NCBI RefSeq assembly: GCF_018977255.1
Contig: NW_024704742.1
Location: 110,114,001-110,178,000 of the forward strand
Origin: Callorhinchus milii
Lineage: Eukaryota
Reading direction: 5' to 3'
Length of the DNA stretch: 64,000 nucleotides
The position numbers and the translations under genes were made by a program. Numbering within the stretch: the first letter of the stretch is position 1; every line of letters starts with the position of its first letter. The notes under the pieces were generated by a model. That model had not been told where the DNA came from, searched no databases, and worked only from the letters and a program-made list of their open reading frames with translations. This document shows positions 1 to 58,006 of this stretch, piece after piece.

Positions 1-2
1 TT

Positions 3-171
3 CTAGCCTGCAAGACCATGTCAGTCTGTGTGGCATGATGGAAAGTTCTTAAAATCAGTCTTAATTTGGTAGCTGGTTTTCTGTCTTCTCAAAAATAACT
101 AATAACCAAATTAAGACTGAATTCAAGAGATTTCTACAGTGCAGCTTGATCTTAATGTTTAAGACAATATG
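3..171. repeat. Palindromic (hairpin) element, copy 1
   Basis: Perfect 16-bp inverted repeat TCAGTCTTAATTTGGT (55-70) / ACCAAATTAAGACTGA (105-120); similar to 49589-49788. Confidence 0.7.
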
Positions 172-479
172 TGGACCCACCTGGCTCAGTCACCAGCCTC
201 AAAACTCCTTGCAAGGCTCTTAGTGAGCAGCATGATTGAAACATGAAATGCATGAGAGCATTGCCACCATCCTCCTGCCCACAGCTTGGACAAACATCCC
301 TACCCATTGAGCCGTGTCTCCACCAATTGAAAATTTAGCATTTCATCAGCAGTTGGTTAACTTTCTGTGCACCAATCAAGGTAACCACAAGGCCTGGATT
401 CCTGAGTATGTGCTCACAAACTTGATTCCAGATAACATCTTCCAGCATTTGTGGTCTCAAGCCTCAACCTTTTCTCACT

Positions 480-775
480 GGCTAGTTGATGCACATCTGA
501 CTTCAGGGTGGTGGGAGGATCTGTCCATGACATCTCGTGACATCAGCCACCTTGATGTGATCCACATTCAATGCCACATACTAGGCTTAGTAACACCAAC
601 AGCATAATGCAGGTCCTCAAGTGAGGGGTCTTGGTAAAGAGATCAGGTCAATGTAGATTGGAGTACTCCTTCTTGGTGATTGATATTCTTTTTACCACAA
701 ATGCACCCCACTGCTCAGGGCTAAATGTCCCAAACTGGCCAAAGCACACCTCTCCATTTCATGGCCTGGAGCTTA
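480..775 (+). mobile_element. Highly decayed DIRS1-like retrotransposon remnant (RNase H end and methyltransferase-like region)
   Basis: Ordered motifs across frameshifts with plausible spacing: HI*LQGGGR (492-518, cf. YINxQGGTRS), HILGL (575-589, cf. HIPGxxN), IDILFTTNA (679-, cf. IDLFASxxN), LSISWP (~750-767). Confidence 0.45.
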
Positions 776-1089
776 GAACCATGTGGGAGTATAGTTTGTA
801 TACATGGCTTATTCGACAGAAGTTTAATCTTGCAATGGAACTTTATTGTCAGTGAAGAGAGACAAGGATGACCAATGTTCTTCACCCCTTCTCAGCACAA
901 TCTCACACTTGGGGACATCCACCATCAAATCCTACCTGTTGACCCAGTGTTCAAGATGGTGAGTATAGTGCTAGTTAATTACATGAACACTCAGTAGAAA
1001 CTCATTGATAGAGCCAACACTTTACTACTTCTTTGAAATACTGATACTCCCTTCTGATTATTACTAATTCAGTGACACCAAGATCACCT

Positions 1090-1350
1090 AAGTGTCGGTC
1101 TGGCTAAGTTAGTAGTACACTTGTCGCCAAGCTAGAAGATTGTGGGTTCAAGTCACACATTGGGATTCTGAGTTAATTTGGCTGATACTCCTCCAATGGT
1201 GTCCTCAAGGAGTACTGCATTCTTGGGGGTGCTGTACATTGGATGAGATGTTAAATTGAGGTCCTGTCTTCCTGTCAGATGGATGTTAAAGATTGCATGA
1301 AACTATTCAAAAAGAGAAGAGTTTCTCCTGAGAAGAGGTGTCCTGACCAG
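1090..1350 (+). mobile_element. Old Deu-domain SINE (SacSINE1/AmnSINE1-like), tRNA head plus Deu core
   Basis: GGCTAAGTTAGTAG...GGGTTCAAGTC head, then GGATGAGATGTTAAATTGAGGTCCTGTC...GGATGTTAAAGAT...GGTGTCCTGACC typical of the Deu domain. Confidence 0.75.
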
Positions 1351-1846
1351 ATAGCCAGTGGGCTATTAGCTAAACCTGCATTTTAATCCTCAATATGAGT
1401 TAAACATTACAAGCTATCACAGAATCAAATACATAAATATACACATATTCCAGAGTGTGTTAAAGTATATAGGTGATTTGAAATGATGACTTTTCTTTTA
1501 CTGTGAACTGCAACTGAAAATTAAAATAAATATACTGGTTATATTTTTCTCGTTGTTCCTTATGTAGATACAAATTTTTTGTATAGAGTTTAGATTTTTT
1601 CAGTTTCAGATAACTATCAAGTGGAAGTGGGAGTGTGCTACAAGTTTGCAACACACTTCGGGAATTTGAGTGACAATTGCATCTAAGAAAGAAGCTTCAG
1701 ATTGTCATTACAATCCACATCCAGCAAATCCCCAACCCTCCCAAATGCAGTACATTAGCTAGAATGTACACAGAGCAAATTATTATTCCTGCTCAGATGT
1801 GCCCAATTGTTACTTCAATGTCAGACTATGTGATGTCAGATACCAT

Positions 1847-1952
1847 CGCCCACAAATATGCAGTCAATTCACTTTACAGTATATTCTGTGAAGTGCTTTG
1901 AGACGTCTAGAAAATGTGAAAAGCGCGATATCAAATGCAAGGATTATTATTG
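1847..1952 (+). mobile_element. 5'-truncated young SINE (tail only)
   Basis: Matches the 3' third of the full-length copies, ending ATCAAATGCAAGGATTATTATT. Confidence 0.9.
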
Positions 1953-2049
1953 TCATCAATACTATTATGGGAGGATTCAGATTGTGATACAGTTTAGGGA
2001 TTCAATGGGCTGGACTGACACGGAAAAGAGGATTTTATCAAATAAGTAC

Positions 2050-2300
2050 ACTGTTTAATAGGCATACAATACTCCTGTATATACATACATACTATATAAT
2101 GTGCTACAATACTCCTCATATATTATACTTTAATACACTCTGTTTTACTAAATAATACCCTTTGTTTTACAGATATACAACTCCGTTTATATTATACAAT
2201 GGTGTACTCTGTTTCACAGAATTAGAACCTCATGTATCCTCGTGTGTAATACAATAAAAGATTTTCTTTCACAGAGGTACAAGGCCTTCTGTGTACAATT
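2050..2300. repeat. Degenerate minisatellite / low-complexity tract (ATACAATACTCC-like unit)
   Basis: Recurrent tacaatactcc / tacactctgttt / ttttacaga variants. Confidence 0.5.
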
Positions 2301-3969
2301 CCCACTTCTTATAGCATAATATGCACTGGTCAGGACACACAGCAAAATGCACATGAAGATATAGTTTAAAATGTTTTGTCATGGAGCTCAATTTTATGGT
2401 AAGCTCCTTGACCTTTAAAGCCATGAACTATTGCTTTATTTCATGGACAATCAAAACTTTTCTTTTGATTCAGAAGTTGCAGTATTGTTTTTGAGTCCTC
2501 CCACTTGCAATTCCTGTGCTCCGATTGCCTCAGTGTGGAAAGATTTTTTGCTGTCAATTTGAAATAATGAGACAAACCAAAGGTGAGTGGAAGACAAAAC
2601 TGATCAGCAGGTCATTCAATGTGTGTAACTCCAGATTTAAAATTACATTGGCATTCTTTAATTTACTCACAGAACATGTTTCCTGAAGGGATAAGTAAAC
2701 TGTAAGACTCAACAGCCTTACAGCCAGCAAATCGTGGGGTGGGTATAAATACACTTGGTGCTGTCCTTTTATCTTCCTCCCCCCTCCATCCCCCAACCCC
2801 CCCCAGCATTTTTGTTTCTTCTTGATATGTGGGAGCTAGAAGACCTTCAAGAACACGTTATCAACTTAATAACATTACTTTAACAAAATATTTCTGTCAA
2901 AATATCCAAGAGTTCACACATGTAATGCTGAGCATGGTTACAAGAACAATTGTGTGAGACAGACACAATCTCCAGAGTTAACATGCCTTTCTTCACAGCT
3001 AACTTGACAATAAGTATGTTGCACTCCTATAAGCTAATCACCTTTGGCACTGCATGGAAAAGTCACACCTTATCTTTCAGGCATTGCTTTACCTTACCAA
3101 AGAGAATTTTTCTTTTCTTTTTCTTTTTGATTATAGAGGGCCTCTTAATCAAACTAAGCTCAGCCTCCGTATCCCAGGGGCAGCATCTCTTAGCTCCCTG
3201 TCAAACTGCGTTGAAACACAATCAATCTTGTTCTTGTGCTTGGATGGCGGAAGTGCCACAACACGAACAGTGTGCTGCTTTGCTCACGCCGTGAAGCCTG
3301 GGTGACAAAAGTTTTTACAAGAAGCTGACTGTACTTAGGGTTATGAATATGCAATGACTCTCATTAGCATTGAAGCGCTGGAGCTGGGGCTGACACCCTG
3401 AGCCACTTCTAGCTGCTGCTGAATTGTATAATGAATTGTCTCTCTTTCAATCAAAATCTTTTCTGTCCTGACTCCCCTTCCAAAGGGAGTCACCAGTCCA
3501 AGAATACCCGTCCGCAGAAGAAATTAATTGCATGCACCCCAGTTGTTTTTGTTAAACAACATTGCGATAGTGCTCCAAATGTCAAAATAAAAAGATGTAT
3601 TAACATTTTTGTGAGCTGGAGTGGAGGCAAATAAAACCACATGAAGGCAGTTAATGTGAAGGGAGACACAAAACATCCACCAGCCCAGCTGTTAGTTTAT
3701 TGTTGTTTTTGTGAATAGGGTTGATTCCAGCAAGGTTACTTAAAACTAACTCTCAGTTGTCTCCTCATTTGTTTTCATTCTCTTTGACAAAACCACGCTG
3801 TTTCCTATCTTCACAACTCAAATTAGAGCTAATTTGCTGTGATTTCATGCATAAGTTACAAACCTATTTGGTATTTGTTATATCAAAATAAAATTCTCTG
3901 CCAGAAAAAGGCCTCTTGTATATTTTAAAATTTTTTGTGTACAATTCTCAACCAGCGAACTTGACTTAC

Positions 3970-4007
3970 CTCTTGACCTGTCCCCCAAGAGTACACGTTC
4001 CCATTGG
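3970..4007 (-). CDS. Isolated 38-nt internal coding exon of an RCC1-repeat (RCC1-like beta-propeller) protein; gene not identifiable from this exon alone
   Basis: Minus strand: TTGTTTCTGTTTATTTTTTTCTGCAG | CC AAT GGG AAC GTG TAC TCT TGG GGG ACA GGT CAA GAG | GTAAGT. Strong acceptor and consensus donor. Phase 1 to phase 0; reads x-N-G-N-V-Y-S-W-G-T-G-Q-E, matching the RCC1 repeat pattern G-x-V-Y-S-W-G-x-x-x-x-(G-Q-L-G). Too short for the ORF track. Confidence 0.75.
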
Positions 4008-6600
4008 CTGCAGAAAAAAATAAACAGAAACAATATGGACATGTTGAAGTTAAATAACAAACACGGGTCGGGTTTAAAATAAATGCAGTTCTGACAAAAG
4101 TGGCTCAAGTATCATACATCAAACACTTGTTACCTTTTTTGGCCTTTGTGATTGCACATGACTGGGAACAAGTCAGTGATAAAATGTGAAGAAAGATGAA
4201 ACCAATCCAGCCCTTTTTAAAGATCATCAATCACTCGGTGCAACCATGATATTATTAGTTCAAGTAAAGCCCTGCTCTTCCATTTTATGGACATCATAAA
4301 ACCCCAGCTCCTCAGCCACCATGGGAATTCATTTTTATGGGAAACATCTTAGAAGGAACCAATCAGACCTAGTGATATAACAAGCTACTGAATAATTCAC
4401 AATCCTTCACTATCCTGAAATTTCTGCAGATCCAGCGAGGGGATATGTAATTGGTATACATTGGTGTTTTTGAAACAAATTATCATAGAACTATGGCGAA
4501 AGTCTGACAAACTAAAAGTTGTAATGGTCTCTCTCTGATGCTTCCAATGCATGTGTTAAAAGAGGTAGCACAAGAAGAGGAATGCTCTGTTCCCCCTAAA
4601 TAAGTTTCTTGGGGTATTAAACCACCAATCATGTTTCTCTGTATAGTAAAAATTAAACTGAATGTCAGTAATTTCTTTACTGATGGTCCTAAACTAAACG
4701 GGAATCTGCATGGCAGACATCTCTGGTTAATTAAGTTTTAATGTACGCTCCCTTGTAATGGACAATGATTCAGAGAAAGAGTAGCTCTTGGGCAGATAGG
4801 ACTCATTGATTCAGTCCATTATGAAGTTGTAAAGATCTTTAAAATATTACAACCGCTTCACCCTTCGATGCAGGGTTTTGGCTAATGTTAATGTTTACCT
4901 GGGGTTTAAGATAAAGTGCAGGTCACTGCTGATACCTTCTCTTTTAATTTTTTTTCGGGGGTGGGGTGTTGGAGGGGGAACAAGTCAAGACTTGAGGTAG
5001 TTACACAAGAAAATATTTATTGAGCCCTTCTGGTGCCTGTAAAATCTGGAGGGATTATAGAGGCGGTTTTGTGTCTGTCTCTCTCACCAATATCAATAAC
5101 TGCTAACTGAATTGTCATGAAAATCCTCCTTTCCAGTGCCTTAAGCTATCTTCCATTCTTAGCTGCACAGTAGTTTTAAAGAAATGGCATCTGATTATTG
5201 GGGGAATACAACAACTCAAGAATAATAAAAAAACTCTCATGTTAATAATACCACTTGTTAAAAGAAGTCATCTTCCCCAATTTATGGATAATTTTCACTT
5301 TGTAAGAACATTTTTCTTGACATAACAAACACCTGAGTATTTTCTGACTGGTTTCTAAAGGACGATGAAATTGATATAGTAATAAGTACATTTTTGAACG
5401 CTGGGATACTGTGCCCTTCCGGCCCACCTGCTTATAACACAGCAATAGTTATTGAATGCAGTGGGCAAGCTGGTTGATCATTGGTGAAGAGGACTGAGAG
5501 GGAAATTATAAGTTAGGCAAAAATACTTTTGAAAATAAATATAGAAAGAAAATAAGGTAACGTATGCTCCTTTGAGATGTTTTCTTGGCTTTAAAGCAAA
5601 TGGAACTCACATAACAAGAGGGTTCTATTTGTCACAGACATTAGTATAATGTTAGGATTGGTCAGTGGTGCATAACACACAAACAACAACAACAACAACT
5701 TGCAGTTATATCACACCCTTCACGGGGATTAGAGTCTCAGAACACTTAAAAAGCTACTGAAAGAGAAGCACACACTCCTCTGAACACCTGTTGTAAAGGC
5801 CAACACTTACAGCCTTAAACAAGTATGGCTCATATTACTATACTCCCCGTGATGAATGTTTTCTTTATGATTCTATGGGGTCTAATGTGTACTGATTGTT
5901 AGAAGTAGTAATCTTGGTTTGCTAAGTCTTTATAAAAGGATTTCCTGTTATAAAGATATAGCAGAAAAGATCGCTACATGTCAAGGGGTCACATAACCTT
6001 ACAAACAAGTGTTTGGAAAATGTTTTATTGGTAAGCATGCCAAGTGATGCCACAATTTCATCATTTAACAGTGATGCTATGCAACAAAAATGGTACATAG
6101 CTCTTCTCTCTCCTCAAAGCAGAGTTTGCCAAACAATCTTTTTTTTCAGGAAGACAATATAGCACTTTAAATGTACTATGTGGTTGCTTCATTTTTTTTC
6201 CACTCCCCGTCAAATTACAATGAAGTAAAGCTGAGATAACATTGTCAAATCAATCGATCAGCTTCCTATCATTACAAACTTATAGGGAGTGACACAGTAA
6301 TCCTTTTTATCAGGAGGATTCATCTTCCTGAGGTTTCAACGCTCCTGCTGACTGTAATGGAGTTTCAGCCAGAACCAGGGAAACACTCTGTTATAATGGA
6401 AGGTTTTTAATAAGTGTTAGTGAGATGACATTGACACAGGCCTGGAGCGACCACATGTGCTCCTCCCCCCATCTGGGGAATGCTACCTGGCATGTGGGTT
6501 GGGCCCAAACAGAGGGTGAATTTAGGGACAAAATAATGAGATTTAACTGGACTTATCACTTTAGAATTCTTCAAGCAGGAATCAAAATCATATTCAATGT

Positions 6601-6903
6601 TATAATCCTTGCATTTGATATAGTGCCTTTCACGTCGGGAGGATGTCCCAAAGCGCTTCACAGAATATACTGTAAAGTGAATTGACTGTATATTTGTGGG
6701 AGAACGCGGCAGCCAATTGCGCACAGCAATGTCCCACAAACAGTCGTTGATTGAAAATGACCAATTTATTATTATTTTGTTTTGGAGGGATTATTATTAG
6801 GTGTGTGGAGTAAGGAAACTTGCCCAAGGTTTCGCCCTGCCTGGAATTGAACTCAGGTCTCTCGCTTGCAAAGCAACTGCTCTAACCACTGAGCTACAGG
6901 ACC
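6601..6903 (-). mobile_element. Full-length tRNA-Ala-derived SINE (short young subfamily; resembles elephant shark SINE2-1_CM type)
   Basis: Head TGTAGCTCAGTGGTTAGAGC (A box), TGC anticodon arm, GAGTTCAATTCC (B box), ~300-bp body, L2-like stem-loop tail. Confidence 0.92.
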
Positions 6904-7347: not shown

Positions 7348-8691
7348 CATAATTAAGAGTAAATCTAAACCCAGGTGGAATTTCTTCAATTCCCTCCCGT
7401 CTTTTAAACATCTCCAAGTATGAGCTGAGATTGCATTGTCCTCTCAGCCAGACAGCAGCAAAACACAGGCAAAACAGCACTGAAAAGTAAAGTGTGGGCA
7501 ACACAACATACTCTTTCAGACTACCCTGATCTCTCACTGCCTCAGAAGCTAGACAGTGCTCCACAGGGTTGACAGCTGCAACTTTCGAGGAAACTGTAGA
7601 GCAAGACTGAGAGGGTAAGCAGTTTACATTGCAAGCAATTACGCTTAGCCAGACTCCTCATCATTATTTAAACGTGTATGATATATCTATAATTTTCTCT
7701 ACTCTATATTTTTATGGAAGTTTAGTGTAGGGAAAATAAGTATGAATCTCCTGCTAGTATGTTTTGTACCTGTAATTCAAACTAATGCTTCCATCAGTCA
7801 CCAGTTCATTCACGACGTTGTATACTTAAGGTGTAGGCAAGCAGCAGTTCAGTTGAATCTATTTAGAAAGCACCAACATTTACTGCCATGTTACCTCTAT
7901 TATTAAGTGCTACCATGTTCTTGGCAGAAAAAATGCACCTAACACACCTATATCTATAGAGGCCTGGTGTATGCATGAGAAACTTGATAATGTGTTTGGT
8001 TGCCTAGTGGCACTGAGTTTGCGTGGATGGCAGGAATTTGACTGACAGTAAATCTGACAAACATTGGTGCGTCTTATCAAAGCTCACCTCACCAGTGGCC
8101 AACAGTGGCTGGAAGCACCCACAAGTCATCAACCTACACCTACAGTGACAAAGCTACAAATAGCTACAATAGTGCCTGAACAGCTCAGTTTGCACTGTCC
8201 AATGCAGGGGGAAAGAGTTGTGGTGGGGAACGTTTGCGCTTTAACTTTCAGAACATATAACATAATTTTCAGCTTTAAATTGACCACCCTTTTTCAAAAT
8301 AAAAACAACTATTTCCAATGTGGGACATACGTATTGTAAAATTACTTTAACTTATTTTATCTCAACACCACCCCCAACCCTTTAGTACACAATGCTCCAT
8401 TCCTCTGTTAAGTGCTGGCGAAGTATTAAACTTTGAACAAGGTTAAGGAAACTCAACATTATCTGATTTGATTGTTCAAGGGAAACAAATGTATCTTTCT
8501 ATGAAAGAAATGCACTTTTTACATTACACTTAGATTGTGTTAGGCAAGGTCTCTGACAATTCCTTCAAAATTTCAGTGCAAAATGTGGAGCCATAAAATA
8601 AGTTAAATAGTTTCTTGACAATAGGGGAACCCCATTTTCATACCTTTTGATACAGTGCTGCCTTGCTTCCAGTGCTGTATCTCCTGCGGAA

Positions 8692-14525: not shown

Positions 14526-14837
14526 TTGATATAGCGCCTTATCGCATCTTCGAGACTCTCAAAGCACGTTACAGAATATACTGTAAAGTGTAGTGACTGT
14601 ATATTTTTGGGGCAAAACACGGCAGCTAATTGCACACAGCAGTGTCCCACAAACAGTTGTGGATTGAGTGACCAAATTATCATTATTTTTTGAAGGGAAT
14701 ATTACCCCCAAAAAGCTGCTAGGTAAACAGAAGCATGTGGAGTAAGGAAATGCCCAATGTTTCGCCCTGCCCGGGAATCGAACCCAGGTCCTCTTGCTTG
14801 CGAGGCGAGTACTCTAACCACTGAGCTATAGGACTCC
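14526..14837 (-). mobile_element. SINE (long-type derivative) directly in tandem with the previous copy
   Basis: Second head ending GAGCTATAGGACTCC; carries the GCTAGGTAAACAG remnant of the long subfamily. Confidence 0.88.
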
Positions 14838-18329: not shown

Positions 18330-19215
18330 AGAGAGGAAGCAAGGTGAAGGGAGTTCTGGAGAAGATTACCTAATTAGGGAAGGGTGAGACCATGAATGGG
18401 TTTGAAGGTTAGGACAAGATCTTATAGTTGAAACATTGGGATACTTAGAGGTAGTGGAGGCTGGCAAGAATGGGAGCAATGGCTGTGTGGAGCCTAGTGC
18501 AGGAGAACAGCAACACCAACAACAAATTACAACTGCCTAGAGCCCTTCACATTGGAAAGATGTCCCAGGACGCTGGACAGTCAGGGGTTTTTGGACCCGA
18601 GTTGGGGTCAGGAGAGGTGGAAGGCAGTGGTGGGGTTGGGGATGGGGGGTGGCCAAAGGCCTGGTTGAAGAGGAAGGGCTTTAGATGGAACTTGAAGGAG
18701 GCAAGAAAGGGTGGTGAGGTGGAGGGACTGCGGGATAGAGTTCCAGGGTGTGGGGGCAGAGATGCTGAATGCCCGACCACCAATGGTAGGGCGGAAAGTG
18801 CGGGGGACCTGAAGCAGGCCGGTGTCCGCCGAGTGGAGGGAGCGGCCAGGCTGATACAGGGTTTGGAAGTAGGAGAGGTAGGGGGGAGCAAGACCGTGGA
18901 GGGCTTTGAAGATGAAAATAGTGACATCACACTTTTGGATCAGTTGGCTCTTACGGAGGGTAGTGCTAAGGGGACCAGTGAGCAGAGCATTGATAAAATC
19001 TATCCTCTTGATTATGTGGGCATGAACAAGGGGGTGAGGTAAGAGCATTAGCAGGCAAAGATCCAGAGATGGAAAAAGGAGGTCTTAGCCATGGACCAGA
19101 TGTGCAGTTGTAAGCACAACTAGGGGTCAACCAGAATGCCAACACTGCGCACTGGCTGATTAAACCTCATCAAGCAGCCACAGAGTTTGATGGAGTTGGA
19201 GCTAGAGGTGAGAAG
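18330..19215 (-). mobile_element. Composite L2 LINE fragments (younger 3' end 18511-~18925 among older L2 sequence)
   Basis: Minus ORF ...RIDFINALL...IFKALHGLAPPYLS...IGGRAFSISAPTPWNSIP is the L2 ORF2 C-terminus; (CAA)n tail at 18511. Confidence 0.88.
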
Positions 19216-20528: not shown

Positions 20529-20845
20529 TAATAATAATAATAATCCTTGCATTTGATATAGCGCTTTTCACGTCAGGAGGACGTCCCAAAGCGCTTCACA
20601 GAATATACTGTAAAGTGAATTGACTGTATATTTGTGGGCGAACGCGGCAGCCAATTGCGCACAGCAATGTCCCACAAACAGTCGTAGATTGAAAATGACC
20701 AATTTATTATTGTTTTTGGTTTTGGAGGGATTATTATTAGGCGTGTGGAGTAAGGAAACTTGCCCAAGGTTTCGCCCTGCCTGGAATTTAACTCAGGTCT
20801 CTCGCTTGCAAAGCGAGTGCTCTAACCACTGAGCTACATGACTCC
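20529..20845 (-). mobile_element. Full-length short SINE, little diverged
   Basis: Complete head, body, stem-loop and (TAA)n tail with most CpGs intact. Confidence 0.93.
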
Positions 20846-21720: not shown

Positions 21721-22944
21721 GGTTATAAATTCAAAAAGGCATTCATTGCATTTTAAATGGTTATATTACAAATTGCCAAATAAGTTAATAAATGTTGTCA
21801 ACAATAATAACAACTTGCATTTATACAATGCCCTTCATGCAGGTAGTGTCTTGGAGTGGTTGGCAAAATAGGGAGCATTTATGAAACCGGCATTTCAACT
21901 ACTAAGCTCAGGGTCGTTTCACGTAACCTTAACTGAAACTATCTAAAAATCCCATACACAAAAAAGATGCAGGAAAGACAAACATTCTCTGTCAAATCCT
22001 TTAAAAGGTCAGCATGTTTTACAATAGTTTGTTATATTTCTTATGCATGCACTGGGGATAACTATGAAATACGAATAACATACATTATTTAAAATAATGT
22101 ACTGACTGATCCAAGTTATTATATCCTGGTAAATATGTCACAACTCTTAATTCTTTGATGTGGATTTCATAATATGACAAGATCAGAGGGACATTACAGA
22201 GGGAACTGGTTATCATTGTTTGCCATGACTGCCTCTGTCGTCAAAATATACAGATCCAAAACTAAATAAATGACCTTGCAATCTTCAGTGAGTACCAAAA
22301 AAATAATGCATACTCTGTAGTGATCACAAGCCTATAATCTCATCTCATCTCAGGGTTTAGATCACAGTTATAACGTGCTCTAACTTCATTTTCATGGCTT
22401 TCAATGCCACCTGAACCCCTCAATGAAATTACTACCTTGTAATCACTCCTAAGCATCTATTATCCACTATATAAACGGCACTTCACTTTGTCAAAGGTTG
22501 TTCGTTAATACCCCAGTTGTACAACATAGTTTGCTTCTATTCAATGTGTTTTGCACGTTGATTTGGCACTAAAAGTATATTTGAATTCCAGTTTAAGTAC
22601 CATTGACTGAATTTTGAAGTCTGCTCCTGAAATCAAATTGCTGCAAATACTACAAGCTGTTTCAATGGAGTCAATGCAAAGCAAACTTTTCAAAACTTTT
22701 TAAAAAATTAATTTTAAACATGCTGTACTGTTCAAATGGACTTCTATTAATGATTCTGAATGTTATTAGATAGCTTGGTGTGTGCTGGATTCTTAATATC
22801 TTTGTTACTTTATTGGTTGCTGATTAATGGGGCTTCTTAGGGTGAGAATGATTTGAAGCAATAAATAGAACTGTGATTTCCTGCTCCGAATTACTTACTA
22901 CATTAACTCCTTTGACTGATGCTTTGACTAATACTGGAAAATAA

Positions 22945-24052: not shown

Positions 24053-24434
24053 GGAGTCCTGTAGCATATTGCTTAGAGCACTCACCTTGCAAGTGTGAGG
24101 ACCTGGGTTTGATTTCCAGACAGGACGAAGCATTAGGCAAGTTTTCTTATTGCTAGGTAAACAGAGGCGTATGGAATGAATAGTAATCTGGATGTTCGTT
24201 GATTGGCAGATCGCTTTTCGGGAGGTAATAATCCATTCAAAATAAATAAATAATAATAATTTGGTCACTCAATCCACAACTGTTTGTGGGCACTGCTGTG
24301 CCTAATTGGCTGCCGGATTTCGCCCACAAAATATACGGTCAATTCATTTTACAATATATTCTGCGAAGCGCTTTGAGATGTCTCGAAGATGTGACAAGCC
24401 ACTAAATCAAATGCAAGGATTATTTATTATTATT
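24053..24434 (+). mobile_element. Full-length long-subfamily SINE
   Basis: GGAGTCCTGTAGC head, extra internal segment (TTGGCAGATCGCTTTTCGGG), standard tail. Confidence 0.9.
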
Positions 24435-25680: not shown

Positions 25681-27059
25681 CTGTAACATGATGTTTGAAA
25701 AACTCAATGCCTAGGACACAAAACAATTTGGAACTTTTTACAATGCACAGAAACACCATCATATTTTTCAATATGGATATAATAATTCTATAATCTTTAC
25801 ATTTGATATAATGCCTTTCATGTTGGAAGGACATCTCAAAGCACTTCACATGATATAATGTAAAGTGTAGTGACTGTGAATTTTACAGCTTTATTTCATA
25901 ACATGCTGTAGTCGGGTCCATAATCCAAACATCATATTATAACAAAACATTCTAAAAATCACATCTTATGCTCCATAAAAAATATATATTTAAGTGCATT
26001 CCTATTTATTCATGATATTCCAATATAAAAAGTACTCAGTGTTGTTTGTGGGGATACTGTACAAGAATACATCAGCCCAGATGTTAAAATATTGACTCTT
26101 TTATGCTTTTAATTGGTGACCTTTGGCACAATTTCCTGCCAGCAGGGTCACATGATGTTGAAATAAATTAGGTCCAGTGCTACTATAGTCATAAGAATAT
26201 TAAAATGAAACAGTTGACAATTCATTACAGAAACAATTGAAAAAAGCAGAATATACAAACTACAAAACAAAAGAATCCAGTGTAAATTGCAAAGAACAAA
26301 CGTATTCAAATAAAGGTAGGGGCCTTTATATTTAAATATTTTTCATGGTGTAATTATATACATAGTAAGATAGCTGCTAACTAACTTGTTCACCAGCTTC
26401 ATAACCCTGTAGGGACCGAGCTACAATTGTACTTTCCATTGTATTGATGCCCGCTTAATTTTATTCTACAGATGCTGAGAAGTGTTAACATTCGCCGATT
26501 CTGGTGCTAATGTTGCTGTGGATTACCTCCCTGGATTACCTCCCCTGTCACAATAGTTTTCTTTCAGAGGCAAGTAGGATCTTGGTGGTAAAGGGTACAT
26601 AAACTATGATTATGACAATAGTTGATCATAAAGTTCATTGTGTAATAATATTTGTTTTCCCTTTTTGATACAAAGCAGGAAATCCCACAAGACTGCACCG
26701 GATCCACAATGGCCCAAATCAGATGAAATCATACCACTTACTTCAACAAAACTGGCGGCAAATGGAAGGAAGAGGGCATTTGGAAAGCAGAAGGTAGGTT
26801 TAATAATGTAACAGACTGAAAAGTGTGACCTTGCTGGCTAAAGCATGCTGATTCAGCACTGCATTCTTTGCTACACTGCAGCAGCCTTTTTCACTTACAA
26901 TCTCAGTGAGGTTCAGAGTTCCATATCAGAGCACTGCAGCCTCTCTCCCAGTGTGTTTGAAAACATGAAGCTCAGAACTGTCTCCACAGGGGACGAGCAC
27001 CACCAGCTATGTCACCACTGGCCTGGCCAGCTAGGAATGCTAAGTGAGTAATGAACATG

Positions 27060-31870: not shown

Positions 31871-32182
31871 GGAGTCCTGTAGCTCAGTGGTTAGATCACT
31901 CGCCTTGCAAGCGAGACACCTGGGTTCAATTCCAGGCAGGGTGAAACCTTGGGCAAGTTTTCTTACTCCACACGCCTAATAATAATCCCTCCAAAACAAA
32001 GCAATAATAAATTTGTCATTTTCAATCCACGACTGTTTGTGGGACACTGCTGTGCGCAATTGGCTGCCGCGTTTCGCTCACAAATATACGATCAATTCAC
32101 TTTACAGTCTATTCTGTGAAGCACTTTGAGTCGACGAGAAGACATGAAAAGAGCTACATCAAATGCAAGGATTATTATTATT
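31871..32182 (+). mobile_element. Full-length short SINE
   Basis: GGAGTCCTGTAGCTCAGTGGTTAG...GGATTATTATTATT. Confidence 0.93.
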
Positions 32183-47189: not shown

Positions 47190-48677
47190 ACACCATCCTT
47201 CTTCACCGTCTCTCCTCCCTCATCTACCTTATACATAATATAATAATCATCATCCTTGCATTTAATATAGCGCTTTTCACGTCTTCTCGACGTTTCAAAG
47301 CGCTTCACAGAATACACTGTAAAGTGAATTGATTGTATATTTGTGGGCGAAACGCAGCAGCCAATTGCGCACAGCAGTGTCCCACAAACAGTCGTGGATT
47401 GAAAATGACCAATTTATTATTGTTTTGTTTCGGAAGGATTATTATTAGGCGTGTGGAGTAAGGAAACTTGCCCAAGGTTTCACCCTGCCTGGAATTGAAC
47501 CCAGGTGTCTCACTTGCAAGGTAAGTGCTCTAACCACTGAGCTACAGGACTCCACCTTAGATGAGGGATTGCGCTTGCATGATTCGAATCCTACTGAACC
47601 TACCCCCTCCACTTCATCTCGGCAAATGGTTTGTCCTCCCGCCCCCGCCTGGTCACCTGTGGGGTACCCAGGGGTCCATCCTTGGTCCTCTTCTTTTCCT
47701 CATCGATATGCTCCCCCTTGGTAATGCCATCCGCAGACACGGGGTAAACTTCCACATGTATGCGGATGACACCCCAAATCTTTGCCTGCTCCACTGTTGA
47801 CTCCAGGCCTGCCAATGTTCATCAGCTTGTCTGGCAGACATCAAGGATGATTTCAAACTTCCTGCATCTGAATGTGGGCAAGATAGAAGCCATACTCCTT
47901 GGCTTCCATCAACATCTTCCCTCCTGCGGATTTGACCTCCTAAACCTCCCTCGGCTCTCCCTCAGACTCACCGAACCAGTGTCCCATCTAGGTATCTTGT
48001 TCAAGTTCCAGTTGCCCTTCCTTCCACACATCCAGTCCTTAACCAGGGCTGTCTTCATCCACCTCCGCCACCTTGCCCGTCTCCGACCGCACCTTACCCC
48101 AAATGCAGCCGAACTGTCGTGCATGTGTTTGTCACCTCCAGCCTGGATTACTCAAATGTACTCCTCGTCGGTCTCCCCAGCTCCACTATTCAAAAAATGC
48201 AACTCATTCAATCCGGCATACTTACCCGGACCGAATTCCGTACCTACATCTCATCAGTTCTGACCAGGCTCCACTGGCTCCCCATCATCGAACAGATTGA
48301 CTTCAAGATCTTCATGCTCGTGTTCAAATCCCTTCACTCCCTGGCACTTCCCTCCCTCTCTGGCATCCTCACTCCCCAATCCAGCACCTGGCGCCTCCAC
48401 TCGACTGGCACCAGCCTCCTGCTTGTTCCTCACCCCTTCTGCTCCACCATTGGAGGTCGCACATTCAGCCACTATGCCCCGAAACACTGGAACATTCTCT
48501 CAAACCCTCCGCCTTGCCCCTCTCTCCCCTTTTTCAAGTCGTGCCTGAAAACCTTCCTTTTCAACTGGCCACCTCCTCCCCCCCCATCCCAGCTTGGATT
48601 CAGGCTCCGCCACTTTTATGCGCTCTGAGACTACCCTGAGTGGAGGGTGCTCTATAAGTACAAGTTGTTGTTGTTGT
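47190..48677 (+). mobile_element. 5'-truncated L2 LINE (RT 3' half plus 3'UTR), inactivated, interrupted by a SINE
   Basis: TILLHRLSS | [55 protein letters not shown] in shifting frames; ends in (GTT)n. Confidence 0.93.
47233..47553 (-). mobile_element. Full-length short SINE inserted in L2, TSD ACCTTA
   Basis: ACCTTA at 47226-47231 and 47554-47559; L2 coding similarity on both sides. Confidence 0.92.
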
Positions 48678-51966: not shown

Positions 51967-53494
51967 TTTTATTGTTTTTACTTAAAAGGATTTAAAAAAA
52001 TAAAATAAGCAGATAATTTCACTGCCCAGTAAATGGACAAATGCAGATTCCAGCAATTGTGGTGAGCATGGTGAGCTCCCATTCTCAACTGGACAGTCAA
52101 GGGGAGGTACTGAGCAGAGATGAAGCACTTCTTCAGGGGGAGGGATGGAAATACAGACCAATCACCCTCATGCTGCTATTGCATGCCTCATAGTGGCCAG
52201 CTCAAGAGTTGCATTGGCATGATCCAGTCACTTATCGCTCTTGGGGTGGGGAGTGTATGTGTGTGTGATGGGGTGAACGTAACAGAAAAGGTGGGATTTT
52301 AAGTAAAGTACTCCTCCTGCTATTGCTATAAAACACTTTTTTTCCTCCAGTCTATTTGAAGCCTCCAACTAAAAAGTCTATTTGAGCGAAGCAAAGAATA
52401 AGTTAAGAAATAATACCACCTCAAAAGTGCGAAAACTGCAATAAACCCATCACATCCAACAACAGCAGAGCATGAAAAGATAAAAAACAGCCTGAGAAGA
52501 ATGTACTAACCACCCATTCACTTTTAAATGCTCTCCACACTTCAATGCACAGACCTAATTACTTGCTGCATTCCTAAATCCACTTTGCCCACTGCAATCA
52601 GAAACCTGGCGTTAAAATATTTTAGACTCCAAGGATCAAGACTAATTATGAGCCTAAGCTGCACCTTTTGGTTTTCTTTTCTGGTCGCTTTTAAACACGC
52701 TCCGCTGGAAGAATGGCTGCCTTGGCCACTCAGGGGTGAAGTGAAGACAAAAGACAAAAAGAGACTCAACTCAATTCAGTAAACGTTAAAAAAGAGAGAA
52801 GATGAAAAAGCCCATGTAGTAAGTGAGCCTGGGTTACACTACAGAATTGTGGCAGGATACAATATTCACAACACAAAGGCGTGTTTAAGGTTGGCAAGGC
52901 CCCTTAATGCTGTTGTTGGTGTTTAAGTAGTGTAGCAAGGTATTTAACAGCGATGGTTTCTAAACATTCAAGCTGAGAATGAATCCAGGGCTTTAGCTAC
53001 TTGGGGGTTGGGGAGAGCAAGGGCGGGGAAGGGTTTTGGGAAGGAAGACAATTGCCCCTCCTCCAAATGGAACCGGACCACAGGAGCAGCAATTGGCACA
53101 TTCTGGCAATAGACCAACGTAATATGATGTACTACAAAAGATTACTACATACTTGCGAGAGATAAAAGTTTTGAAAATGTAAGCTTTAATATAATGTTTG
53201 GCCCACCCAGGCAGTATGCATCTTCCATCTGAACCACCTTTCTTTATAGTGGATAGCAGCCTCTGTGGAATGCTTAGATAGACACAGTACATCACAGTGA
53301 ACACGAGGAGGTCCAATTTTCAGAACTTGTGTCGATTTGCAAAATCAAGTACACGTAAAGTATTTTTTCTTCTTTAATTTTCGCAACATCTCTCCTGAAA
53401 GAGCTGACATGATCTGTGTGTGGTGTGTGTGTGTGCTGGGGAAATCTGATGTAATGCAAGTTTCGGAAATACTTAAATTCAGTCTCATCTTTGA

Positions 53495-54300
53495 TAACAG
53501 TGAGGGGATGAGAAAGATACCTGAAAGCATGGACCTTGAAGGGTGTGTGTGAAGGGGTAAGCCGAAGGAATTCCAGGATGGAGCTCCAGAGAGTGGTGGC
53601 AGATGCGCTGAAAGCACCAATGGTGGGGTGTAAGTGGGGTGGGGGACATGAAGCAAGCTGGGGCCCACTGAGCAGAACGGTCGGGCTGGTAGGTTTGAGG
53701 AGGTCGCAGAGTTAGAGTGGGGTAAGACCATGGAGGGATTTAAAGATTAGGAAGAGAATTTTGATCTTGAGCCTCTGGGGGATGGGAAGCCAGTGTACAA
53801 CAACAACAACACAAGATTCCATTTATAAAGCGCCTTTCACGTCAGGAGGACGTCCCAAGGCGCTACACAGTTGGGTCATGACCCGAGCAGGGGGGAAATG
53901 GTCAGGGTGAGGGAAGGGAGCGAGGAGGGGGGAAATTGTCAGGGTGAGGGGAGGGATGGGAGGGAGCGAGGAAGAGAGTCGAGAGGGGAGCTGAAGGCAC
54001 GGTCAAAGAGAAGTGTAGCCGTGTGAGGATGGGATTGATAGACTTGTGGAGTCTAGTGCAGGAAAAGACACAGGTTTTAGAGTTCTGGATATTCTGCATC
54101 TTACAGGTAGTCCAGCAAGCAGAGAGTTGATGTAATCAAGCATGGATATGATGATTGCATGGATTAGAGCCTCAAGGGAGATTTAGTGGCAGAGGCAGGC
54201 AATGTTATGGAGATGGGGAAAAGCTGAGGTCAGAGCATAGATGTGAGGTTCAAAGGACAATGGTGCGTTGAACAAGATGCATAGGTTCCACGAGATGGAG
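53495..54300 (-). mobile_element. Older L2 3' region with a younger L2 3' end nested at 53798-54011 (TSD AGTGTA)
   Basis: AGTGTA at 53792-53797 and 54012-54017; the LTRLH|WLP motif is split by the insert; insert has a (CAA)n tail and stem-loop. Confidence 0.85.
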
Positions 54301-55150: not shown

Positions 55151-56639
55151 ATGCTGTTTGCTTATTAAAATATAGTATCTTATACTGTCTTAGAGACATT
55201 TGAATTCTAGATCATTCATTATTTGTGATCAGTATTTCATTGCTGTTCTATCAGATGAAAATAAAATGTAAATATACAGAAATGCCATTTGTTCTGAATA
55301 TAGAACAAGGGAATAAAAAATCTGATGTGATCATTATTGGTGAAAACTCACCCAAAAGATTTCATCTCCCGCTTTAGTTATCATCTGTAGACGGAAGTGT
55401 TTGAGTCCACTTCAGGCGATACTAGCTTAAAATTGAACTAATGTGCTAATTAGTCCACACACTTTTAGTCAATTGAATCAGTATCATCAGTGATGATTAT
55501 CACTTCACAGGACACATTTTGCACTTCAAGATCCTGGATTCTTATGCAGAACACATAATTGGTAAAATCTCAGCAATTGTATGAAGCACATTTGAAGCAT
55601 ACATACACATCCAGCCATACATACAATAGATGCTCAAGGGCAGGTAACTGAACCTTGCAGCAATAATATTCTAAATGTATAAAATAAATGCAAAGGGAAA
55701 AAAATCTACTATTGCTATTTCTTCACACACGACTACTAAGCCAGCTTGGCCTCTTGTTAATAATCAGTGTTAGTGATGATTATCACATCACAGGGTAAAA
55801 TAAAAGGAAGTAAAAATAATTATCCTAATTCACTTGCCTGAAAGCTAATAATTCAGGTGAATGAGAATCCGTTTTTCAAGTGGCTTGTTCCCTCTTAAAG
55901 ACTGTAATAGGATCTGGGCCCTGCCTGCGACCCTCCTACTTCAAGATAAAAAAGTGGGAACAAATAGTAATTGCAATAATCATGGGCTTTCTTTTTTCTG
56001 TACAAAAAACAGGCCAGGGATCAAACAGTCAGTATTTTCCTCTGTGAAAAAAGTCTGAGACACCGCAGGAATGAATAGCTTTACTGACAAAGGGCAGGAT
56101 AAATCTTATGGTCCTTACCACAATAATATCACACGTGAAATTTCTTTGTTGCTGCGTGAGAGGGACAGTGTTCTAATAATTACAGGCACAAGCTATAATT
56201 TGACAACAAGCAAAGCGAGAAATCGCGAAAGCCATGGAACAACGATATGTGTCTTTGCTTCTGGTGTATGAGGTATTATGTACCTTAAATTAGAGGTAAG
56301 GTGATTTTGAATTATGCTTACCAATTGAACGAGGTAGACAATGATGCAATGAAGTCATGCGGTCTTTGTTGAACCAGTCTAGGTGAGAAAGCAATTCTGA
56401 CATTACTTTAGTGAAGCAGATTAGGTTCCACCTGCTGTCAGTTAACTAGGTCCACCAGTTCCTATCTAATTGTCAGTTAACTGCAAATCTCACAAAGAAA
56501 AAATAAAGCTCATAACGTGCTCTCAAAACAGTGATTATGGAATTGACAAGTTTTACAAGGTTTAAATCCTATCAGTCCTACTCACCACTGAACATAAAAG
56601 TAATGTATTCTTTACTCCCATTTACACTGCACTTGTTGA

Positions 56640-57741
56640 GTTTAGCTTTTCTTAACTCCTCAATCCCTCTTCTCACCGTCAACCAATCCACCTCCATCTC
56701 CTATCGCCCCTGGAAAAAAATCTCCCCCTCCTCCCTCTCCGCTGCCTTGGAGTCATCTGAACTCCTCCCCCTATGGGCTTCCTTCCGCAATGACCTATTC
56801 TCCTCTGTCACTCTTCTCCACAGGTCCCTCTCCACCATTCTCGATTCCCTTGCTCCATTCACTTCCCAAACCATTTCCTACTCATGAAAGTCACCATGGT
56901 ATACCAGCCACCTCCACTCCCTTGAAGCATGGGTGAGTGCCACTGAACGCACCTGGCTTAAATCAAGCTTAATGGACAAGGACAACCCCAGGCTCCTCTT
57001 CTCCATCACCAACAGGCTCCACTACCCACCCTCTCATACCTCGCCCATCCTCACCTCAAATGCCAACCGCGAGGCGATGCTGGACTTCTTCGAATCCACA
57101 GTCGAAGATTTCCGCTCAGCTGCCTCTGCCCTTCCATCTACTACCCTCTCCTCATCTCCCTCTCACACCCTGGCCCCTAACCATCCCTCCCTCCATACTT
57201 TCGAACCTGTCTCCCACTCCTCTCTTACCACCACTATAGACCACATGAAACGAACCACCTGCTCCCTCGGCCTCATCCATACCCCTTTCCTTACCTCCCA
57301 GCTTCCATCTCCTTGGCCACCTACTCACAGACATCATAAACCTCTCCCTGTCCACTGGTACTGTTCCCACCTCTTTAAAAATGGCTGTCATCACTCCTAT
57401 CCTTAAAAAAAATCCCTGGACCCACTCCTGCTCTCAAATTACTGCCCCATCTCCAACCTCCCTTTCCTCTCCAAAGCCCTGGAATGAGTCGTTGCTTCCC
57501 AGCTTCTCTCCTTCCTCTCCTGCCACTCCCTTCCCAAATCCCTCAAATTGGGTTTCCGTGCCGCCCACAGCACTGAAACAGCCCTGGTCAAAGTGACAAA
57601 TGACATTCTGTCCATCTGTGACCAGGGCTCCCTCTGCCTCCTCATCCTCCTTGACCTTTCTGTTGCCTTCGACACTGTAGACCACTCTATCTTCATCCAC
57701 CGCCTCTCCTCTCACCTCAACCTTCACGGTACAGCTGTTTC
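56640..57741 (+). mobile_element. L2 ORF2 internal fragment (linker to RT N-half), frameshifted, ending at a SINE
   Basis: NPRLLFSITNRL, MAVITPILKK, PISNLPFLSK, GFRAAHSTETALVKVTNDIL, LILLDLSVAFDTVDH. Confidence 0.92.
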
Positions 57742-57742
57742 T

Positions 57743-58006
57743 TAATAATAATAATCCTTGTATTTGATACAGCACTTTTCACGTCGGGAGGACGCCCCAA
57801 AGCGCTTCACAGAACACACTGTAAAGTGAATTGACTGTATATTTGTGGGCGAACGCGACAAATGACCAATTTATTATTGTTTTTTGGAGGGATTATTATT
57901 AGGCGTGTGGAATAAGGAAACTTGCCCAAGGTTTCGCCCTGCCTGGAATTGAACTCAGGTCTCTCGCTTGCAAAGCGAGTGCTCTAACCACTGAGCTACA
58001 GGACTC
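57743..58006 (-). mobile_element. Short SINE with an internal deletion
   Basis: Head and tail intact; the GCCAATT..CAGTCG segment is missing. Confidence 0.9.

Follow-up and report, generated by a model that had tools for sequence, protein, structure and literature searches.

Which gene does an isolated 38-nt exon in the chimaera Callorhinchus milii belong to, and where is the rest of that gene? In the 64,000-nt stretch of DNA analyzed here (the window), we found a coding exon at 4007-3970 on the minus strand (38 nt, phase 1 to 0), which holds the last two bases of a split codon followed by 12 codons, NGNVYSWGTGQE. The exon is preceded by a pyrimidine tract with a terminal CAG and followed by a consensus GTAAGT donor (3964-3969, minus strand). 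As the initial annotation had seen, both splice sites are strong and the peptide is in frame: using a simple splice matrix with general rather than fitted frequencies, the acceptor scores 6.5 bits (a score reached by 20/4092 minus-strand AG sites) and the donor 7.8 bits (reached by 2/3420 GT sites), and the exon ranks first among the 8 open AG-GT candidates on both strands of the window. The acceptor region (4008-4090, minus strand) contains the AG at 4008-4009, the pyrimidine tract, and an 81-nt AG-free stretch (4010-4090), with TTAAC at 4053-4049 as a putative branch point. Since the sites are strong at both ends and the AG-free acceptor zone is long, exon definition is probable.

The encoded peptide resembles an RCC1 repeat. 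We found 4 instances of the motif G-x-[VILM]-[YFW]-x-[WF]-G in the six frames of the window versus a shuffle mean of 0.41, and an RCC1-type motif flanked by good splice sites at both ends is found once in the window versus 0/100 dinucleotide shuffles. All 6 PDB matches of the exon peptide at E ≤ 10 are RCC1-repeat proteins. A chance look-alike would agree with the behavior of the peptide by itself, which aligns with Pfam RCC1 positions 1-12 at E 0.079 and fails the Pfam cut-off; however, none of the shuffles yields the motif with splice sites, and shark and sturgeon models have the exon with exactly the same boundaries, so this idea is already refuted and we give it almost no credence. The 38-base piece is a real exon.

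Orthologues were found with a profile of the exon's reading frame, which gave 9 matches among 8000 scored candidates. The top match, the horn shark (Heterodontus francisci) model XP_067885103.1, is identical over the exon (13/13 residues) and continues with GQLGQG. With the RCC1 part of this model as the query, 25/36 candidates were retrieved, 7 of which are the same gene (from sharks, paddlefish, and sturgeon), and the clusters of these 7 records contributed 8 further records of the gene. Whole-protein models exist for the sterlet (Acipenser ruthenus), XP_058843354.1 (690 aa) and XP_058891608.1 (681 aa). In the sterlet, the exon corresponds to residues 277-289, the start of the sixth RCC1 repeat with a predicted strand at 281-286; 10/12 residues are identical to the window peptide, the blade end CWHSLLLT comes before it, and GQLGHG comes after it. 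Hence, the initial annotation was right that this is an RCC1-repeat exon with GQLG to follow, and its expectation that the preceding exon ends in an H-x-x-x-L-T-type motif is borne out by the H-S-L-L-L-T of the sterlet blade end.

Besides the horn shark and the two sterlet models, the same gene is represented by XP_038661198.1, XP_067838275.1, XP_078421217.1, XP_072372373.1, XP_041127273.1, and KAK6492414.1 with KAK6492415.1, and the models are named only 'uncharacterized', 'hypothetical', or 'UVR8-like'. The search depends on exact shared words within a range of 279-889 aa, and the distribution seen is sharks, paddlefish, and sturgeons; no chimaera model was among the 36 candidates returned in this size range. 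The 5' and 3' parts are joined in one protein in one species, the sterlet (two copies), and 6/6 shark models (5 species) are without the 5' half. The 3' parts of the sharks are open frames, and across the last two repeats their mutual identity is 90-94%. Searches with the exon peptide alone gave little: full-library phmmer gave 5 matches, of which 3 are unrelated RCC1 proteins and 2 are not RCC1 proteins, with no orthologue; a padded-peptide search gave 0 candidates, which we take as uninformative since a 13-residue match has too few index words; and a degenerate exon pattern had 0 matches in metagenome contigs. Among the 12 matches listed for sequencing runs with words of the exon, there is no RNA run, and this has no bearing on expression. 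Taken by sequence, the gene is an RCC1-type propeller gene common to sharks and sturgeons that so far has no name.

The initial annotation could not assign the exon to a gene. The gene is now identifiable by accession (XP_067885103.1), and the reason that the earlier assignment failed is that the gene is apparently none of those named then, as the following comparisons indicate. The RCC1-like domains of HERC1 and HERC2 (PDB 4o2w, 7q40, and 3kci) have the same fold and include the best sequence match (E 2.2e-50), whereas identity to the sterlet protein is 23-25% and the sterlet protein is without a HECT domain; we found no HECT domain at E ≤ 0.1 in the two sterlet models and the basking shark model and none at E ≤ 1 in the horn shark model (279-889 aa range). 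NEK8 and NEK9 have an N-terminal kinase domain. Pfam finds no kinase domain in the sterlet models, whose first repeat starts from about residue 10, presuming that the models are complete. ALS2 combines the Alsin RLD with PH, MORN, and VPS9 domains; the Alsin_RLD match is 41.7 bits versus a cut-off of 100, and Pfam finds no other ALS2 domain. RCBTB1/2 and IBTK carry BTB, with or without ankyrin repeats, and neither BTB nor ankyrin repeats appear in the Pfam scan of the orthologue models.

RPGR (PDB 4jhn, 4jhp, and 4qam) shares with the sterlet protein an N-terminal RCC1-like propeller, which in RPGR too is followed by a long disordered tail, but RPGR is no nearer than UVR8 or the HERC domains. 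By structural alignment, identity of the sterlet propeller is 25-26% to human RPGR, 20-21% to RCC1, 20% to RCC2, and 23% to RCC1L; fish orthologues of these four proteins would be expected to be far closer. Arabidopsis UVR8, from which the automatic 'UVR8-like' label stems, has the same fold (25-29% identity), but the GWRHT motifs that hold its photoreceptor tryptophans have GERHT, GANHN, and GCWHS as their counterparts in the sterlet protein, so the tryptophan triad is absent. SERGEF and RCCD1 were compared by cluster scores and names only: Atlas cluster scores are 0.92 for SERGEF and 0.93 for the ALS2- and RPGR-named clusters, which does not discriminate between them, and RefSeq gives the models of this gene neither the SERGEF nor the RCCD1 name. 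The gene is thus apparently none of HERC, NEK8/9, ALS2, or RPGR, and it also fails the tests for RCBTB/IBTK, UVR8, RCC1, RCC2, and RCC1L. Since HECT, kinase, and BTB domains and the tryptophan triad of UVR8 are all absent and identity to RPGR is about 25%, the gene appears to be an unnamed member of the RCC1 superfamily.

PMC6002735 describes the RCC1 superfamily as having seven repeats that form a seven-bladed propeller, and the sterlet orthologue has this seven-repeat, seven-bladed form by Pfam, structural model, and Foldseek. Both sterlet proteins have 7 RCC1 stretches and no other domain above the Pfam cut-off. AlphaFold2 predicts an all-beta fold over residues 10-385, in which the exon forms strand 281-286, and pLDDT is under 50 for residues 384-690 (16-row alignment; mean pLDDT 47.9, pTM 0.53; the other four models 35-38). 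The best Foldseek matches to this model are UVR8 and HERC2 RLD2 (E 4.6e-27), and the UVR8, HERC2, RPGR, and RCC1 propellers match about equally (20-29% identity). The fold of the product is ordinary.

Identity between horn shark and sterlet is 68/107 in the propeller part, 103/295 in the tail, and 23/28 in a motif near the end (sterlet residues 649-676, 28 residues), which sharks and sturgeons have kept although the tail around it diverges. This motif had no Pfam or Atlas match, and an Atlas search with sterlet residues 610-690 gave no usable match. Since a conserved island inside a disordered tail suggests a binding site, the end motif is probably where a partner binds. Judging from what is established for the superfamily, the protein most likely serves as a platform on which partner proteins dock, much like RPGR or SERGEF and perhaps within a small-GTPase pathway.

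Where, then, are the neighboring exons? In a tblastn search of the window with 15 orthologue models (BLOSUM62), exon 4007-3970 was found alone, and the next best match had E 0.24. A profile of the 5' half had a best E of 2.6 among 4413 open segments, and in a stop-tolerant colinear search for the 5' half, the best match was reached by 36/60 shuffles and the chain by 16/60; the number of weak matches (68) was reached by only 3/60. Hence, 0/276 residues of the 5' half were found in the 60 kb upstream. At the divergence of shark and sterlet, exons of 41-52 residues are detected with E 3e-8 to 4e-22 and 20-residue pieces with E 0.004-0.64, so exons of about 20 residues could escape these searches. 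On the other side, we found no GQLG-type exon in 1-3969, in agreement with the initial annotation: the best score among 267 AG sites is 9 versus 34 for the shark-sterlet control.

Since the window has no further exon of any orthologue model, the upstream intron (4008-64000, minus strand, running off the window) probably exceeds 60 kb, which would place the preceding exon at a distance of more than 60,000 bases; the downstream intron (3969-1, minus strand) would likewise run off the window after more than 3.9 kb. The very long intron that had been proposed for this gene is therefore likely, although its length is itself inferred. Long introns are not rare in vertebrates. For the intron lengths of chimaeras, we found no figure in the accessible part of bioRxiv 10.1101/443036.

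Several sites in the window were considered as RCC1-like and rejected. The motifs at 27025, 52715, and 21010 (plus strand) and at 22275, 15245, and 14987 (minus strand) are on the wrong strand or at background level. The segment 22278-22233 (minus strand) resembles sterlet residues 123-138 in the right order and on the right strand, and its score is 36 versus 37-38 at sites on the wrong strand or in the wrong order. The one motif match among 431 upstream donors, at 57229, sits in a LINE-like reading frame.

Outside the exon, the window carries SINE- and LINE-like repeats and is 10.5% self-similar. Seven tRNA-like matches (6832-6903, 14771-14828, 20772-20843, 24056-24127, 31873-31944, 47480-47551, and 57934-58005) sit in a dispersed repeat of about 300 nt that is probably a tRNA-derived SINE family. 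Pyrimidine/purine-skewed, reverse-transcriptase-like reading frames are at 47653-48639, 56516-57778, 18455-19084, and 53292-53746; we take these to be fragments of L2/CR1-type LINEs. The second-best exon candidate by splice scores (13.8 bits) is a 63-nt segment at 896-958 on the plus strand, opposite to the exon.

The claim that no upstream exon lies in 4008-64000 held in that nothing convincing was found, but one weak candidate, an exon or exon remnant at 8139-8093 (minus strand), qualifies it. This segment has a blade-end-like peptide, a 5.7-bit phase-1 donor, and a 1.7-bit acceptor. If it (in a 47- or 61-nt form ending at 8093) were the preceding exon in diverged form, the adjacent intron would be only about 4.1 kb. 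In an anchored test, no phase-1 donor fits the expected blade end better than 8093, the strand and phase are right, and its score of 33 beats most shuffles (reached by 8/300 with any GT, 3/300 with a donor of at least 0 bits, and 0/300 with a donor of at least 3 bits); 5/6 of the other sterlet blade ends likewise have their best site here (6/7 in all). However, true shark-sterlet blade ends score 54 and 66 in the same test, which was picked after the site was seen. At 1.7 or -1.1 bits, the acceptor is weak; there is a stop 21 codons upstream, the match does not extend, and Q-P stands at the H-S position of the family. Moreover, in the sturgeon models the preceding exon stays with the other 5' exons, and the window has none of these. 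The resemblance is probably due to chance, and we give a real preceding exon at this site a small likelihood; even if it is real, about 255 residues are missing from the window, which leaves a gap of more than 55 kb or a loss of the 5' half anyway.

A gene that is intact, with a long gap produced by a misjoin or an inflated region of the assembly, is very unlikely. The distance comes from one window only, as an assembly effect would allow, but this window has 0 N, the break in the shark models falls on that side of the exon too, and 94-100% of sampled words around the exon are present in four DNA runs of one study, possibly of the source sample.

The public gene models break at the same place. 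Among 14 named models (a count that leaves out a 133-residue Logan fragment), 2 cover the whole protein, 4 comprise a 5' half, and 8 comprise a 3' part; 12/14 are broken at or beside the exon orthologous to 4007-3970. The four sturgeon 5'-half models end at the preceding exon and run into its following intron, and in Huso huso, the two halves carry consecutive accessions with a contig of equal length. The horn shark model has the exon in frame with an unrelated start ahead of it. The basking shark model XP_078421217.1 starts just upstream of the exon, and its residues 1-30 are the exon and its intron flanks in a shifted frame, so its start is probably an annotation error. The sturgeon breaks could stem from a missed 38-nt exon without long introns. 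However, the horn and basking shark models include the exon but no 5' half, and both are interrupted on the upstream side of the exon, which favors a long intron over a missed 38-nt exon.

These breaks also bear on whether the 5' half still exists. Either this lineage alone or cartilaginous fishes as a whole may have lost it or carry it in dead form, in which case the exon would survive as a conserved element of the DNA or within a truncated transcript. In line with this, the 5' half is missing from 6/6 shark models, the 36 candidates (279-889 aa) include no chimaera model, and wobble sites and intron flanks are conserved too. PMC7530604 describes how bystander exons can be lost while regulatory DNA is retained, and there the marks of a bystander gene in a regulatory block are conserved intronic enhancers and conserved linkage to a developmental regulator. 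The bystander role that the initial annotation proposed for this gene is hypothetical. Against loss, the exon is unchanged relative to the horn shark (13/13 residues) and keeps both splice sites, two blades alone do not explain the 90-94% identity of the open shark 3' parts, and there are no decayed remnants above shuffle level. Hence, we regard loss of the 5' half as unlikely.

What we consider probable is that an unnamed jawed-fish gene, whose product has about 690 residues, requires the segment as an internal exon, with the 5' half more than 60 kb upstream and the 3' part more than 3.9 kb downstream. The exon would join these two parts in this genome, and the 5' half in cartilaginous fishes is an assumption, as the shark models seen carry 3' parts only. 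The predicted product is a seven-bladed RCC1-like propeller followed by a disordered tail of about 300 residues with the conserved 28-residue motif near its end. The exon length of 38 nt is not divisible by 3, so a transcript that skips it would go out of frame once five repeats have been read, and the propeller would be destroyed; the exon would be included constitutively across the long introns.

Conservation is also seen at wobble positions and in the intron flanks. A 90-nt block (4042-3953, minus strand) comprising the exon, 35 nt upstream, and 17 nt downstream matches the basking shark model in the shifted frame, with 26/30 residues identical (E 4.8e-10). The first codon positions of the shifted frame are the wobble positions of the true frame; 9/11 degenerate sites are forced to be identical, 2 are compatible, and 0 are contradicted, if the first two bases of each true codon are taken as in the window (7/11 under a weaker assumption). 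Such agreement would be notable only against a neutral baseline below about 75% for this pair of species. In the intron flanks, 14/18 shifted-frame codons match, but pyrimidine tracts resemble each other anyway. Cartilaginous fishes evolve slowly. The conservation of wobble sites and flanks and the 81-nt AG-free zone would fit equally well with a small, isolated exon in need of strong definition, with a frame-shifting exon under regulation, or with an enhancer that overlaps the exon. It is possible, though on balance doubtful, that the exon is constrained as an ancient splicing on/off switch or as a coding exon that doubles as an enhancer in a long-intron gene. If the switch is true, skipping would shift the frame and remove the last two repeats and the tail.

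In the main texts of the open-licence literature, we found no paper on the exon peptide motif or on six LOC/XP identifiers. What is new is an RCC1-superfamily gene of jawed fishes without a name and the location of the breakpoint in its annotation. With 12/14 models broken, the gene is easily miscounted as two genes or as absent. Its significance would be greater if tetrapods or teleosts prove to have lost the gene, or if the exon acts as a switch under regulation.
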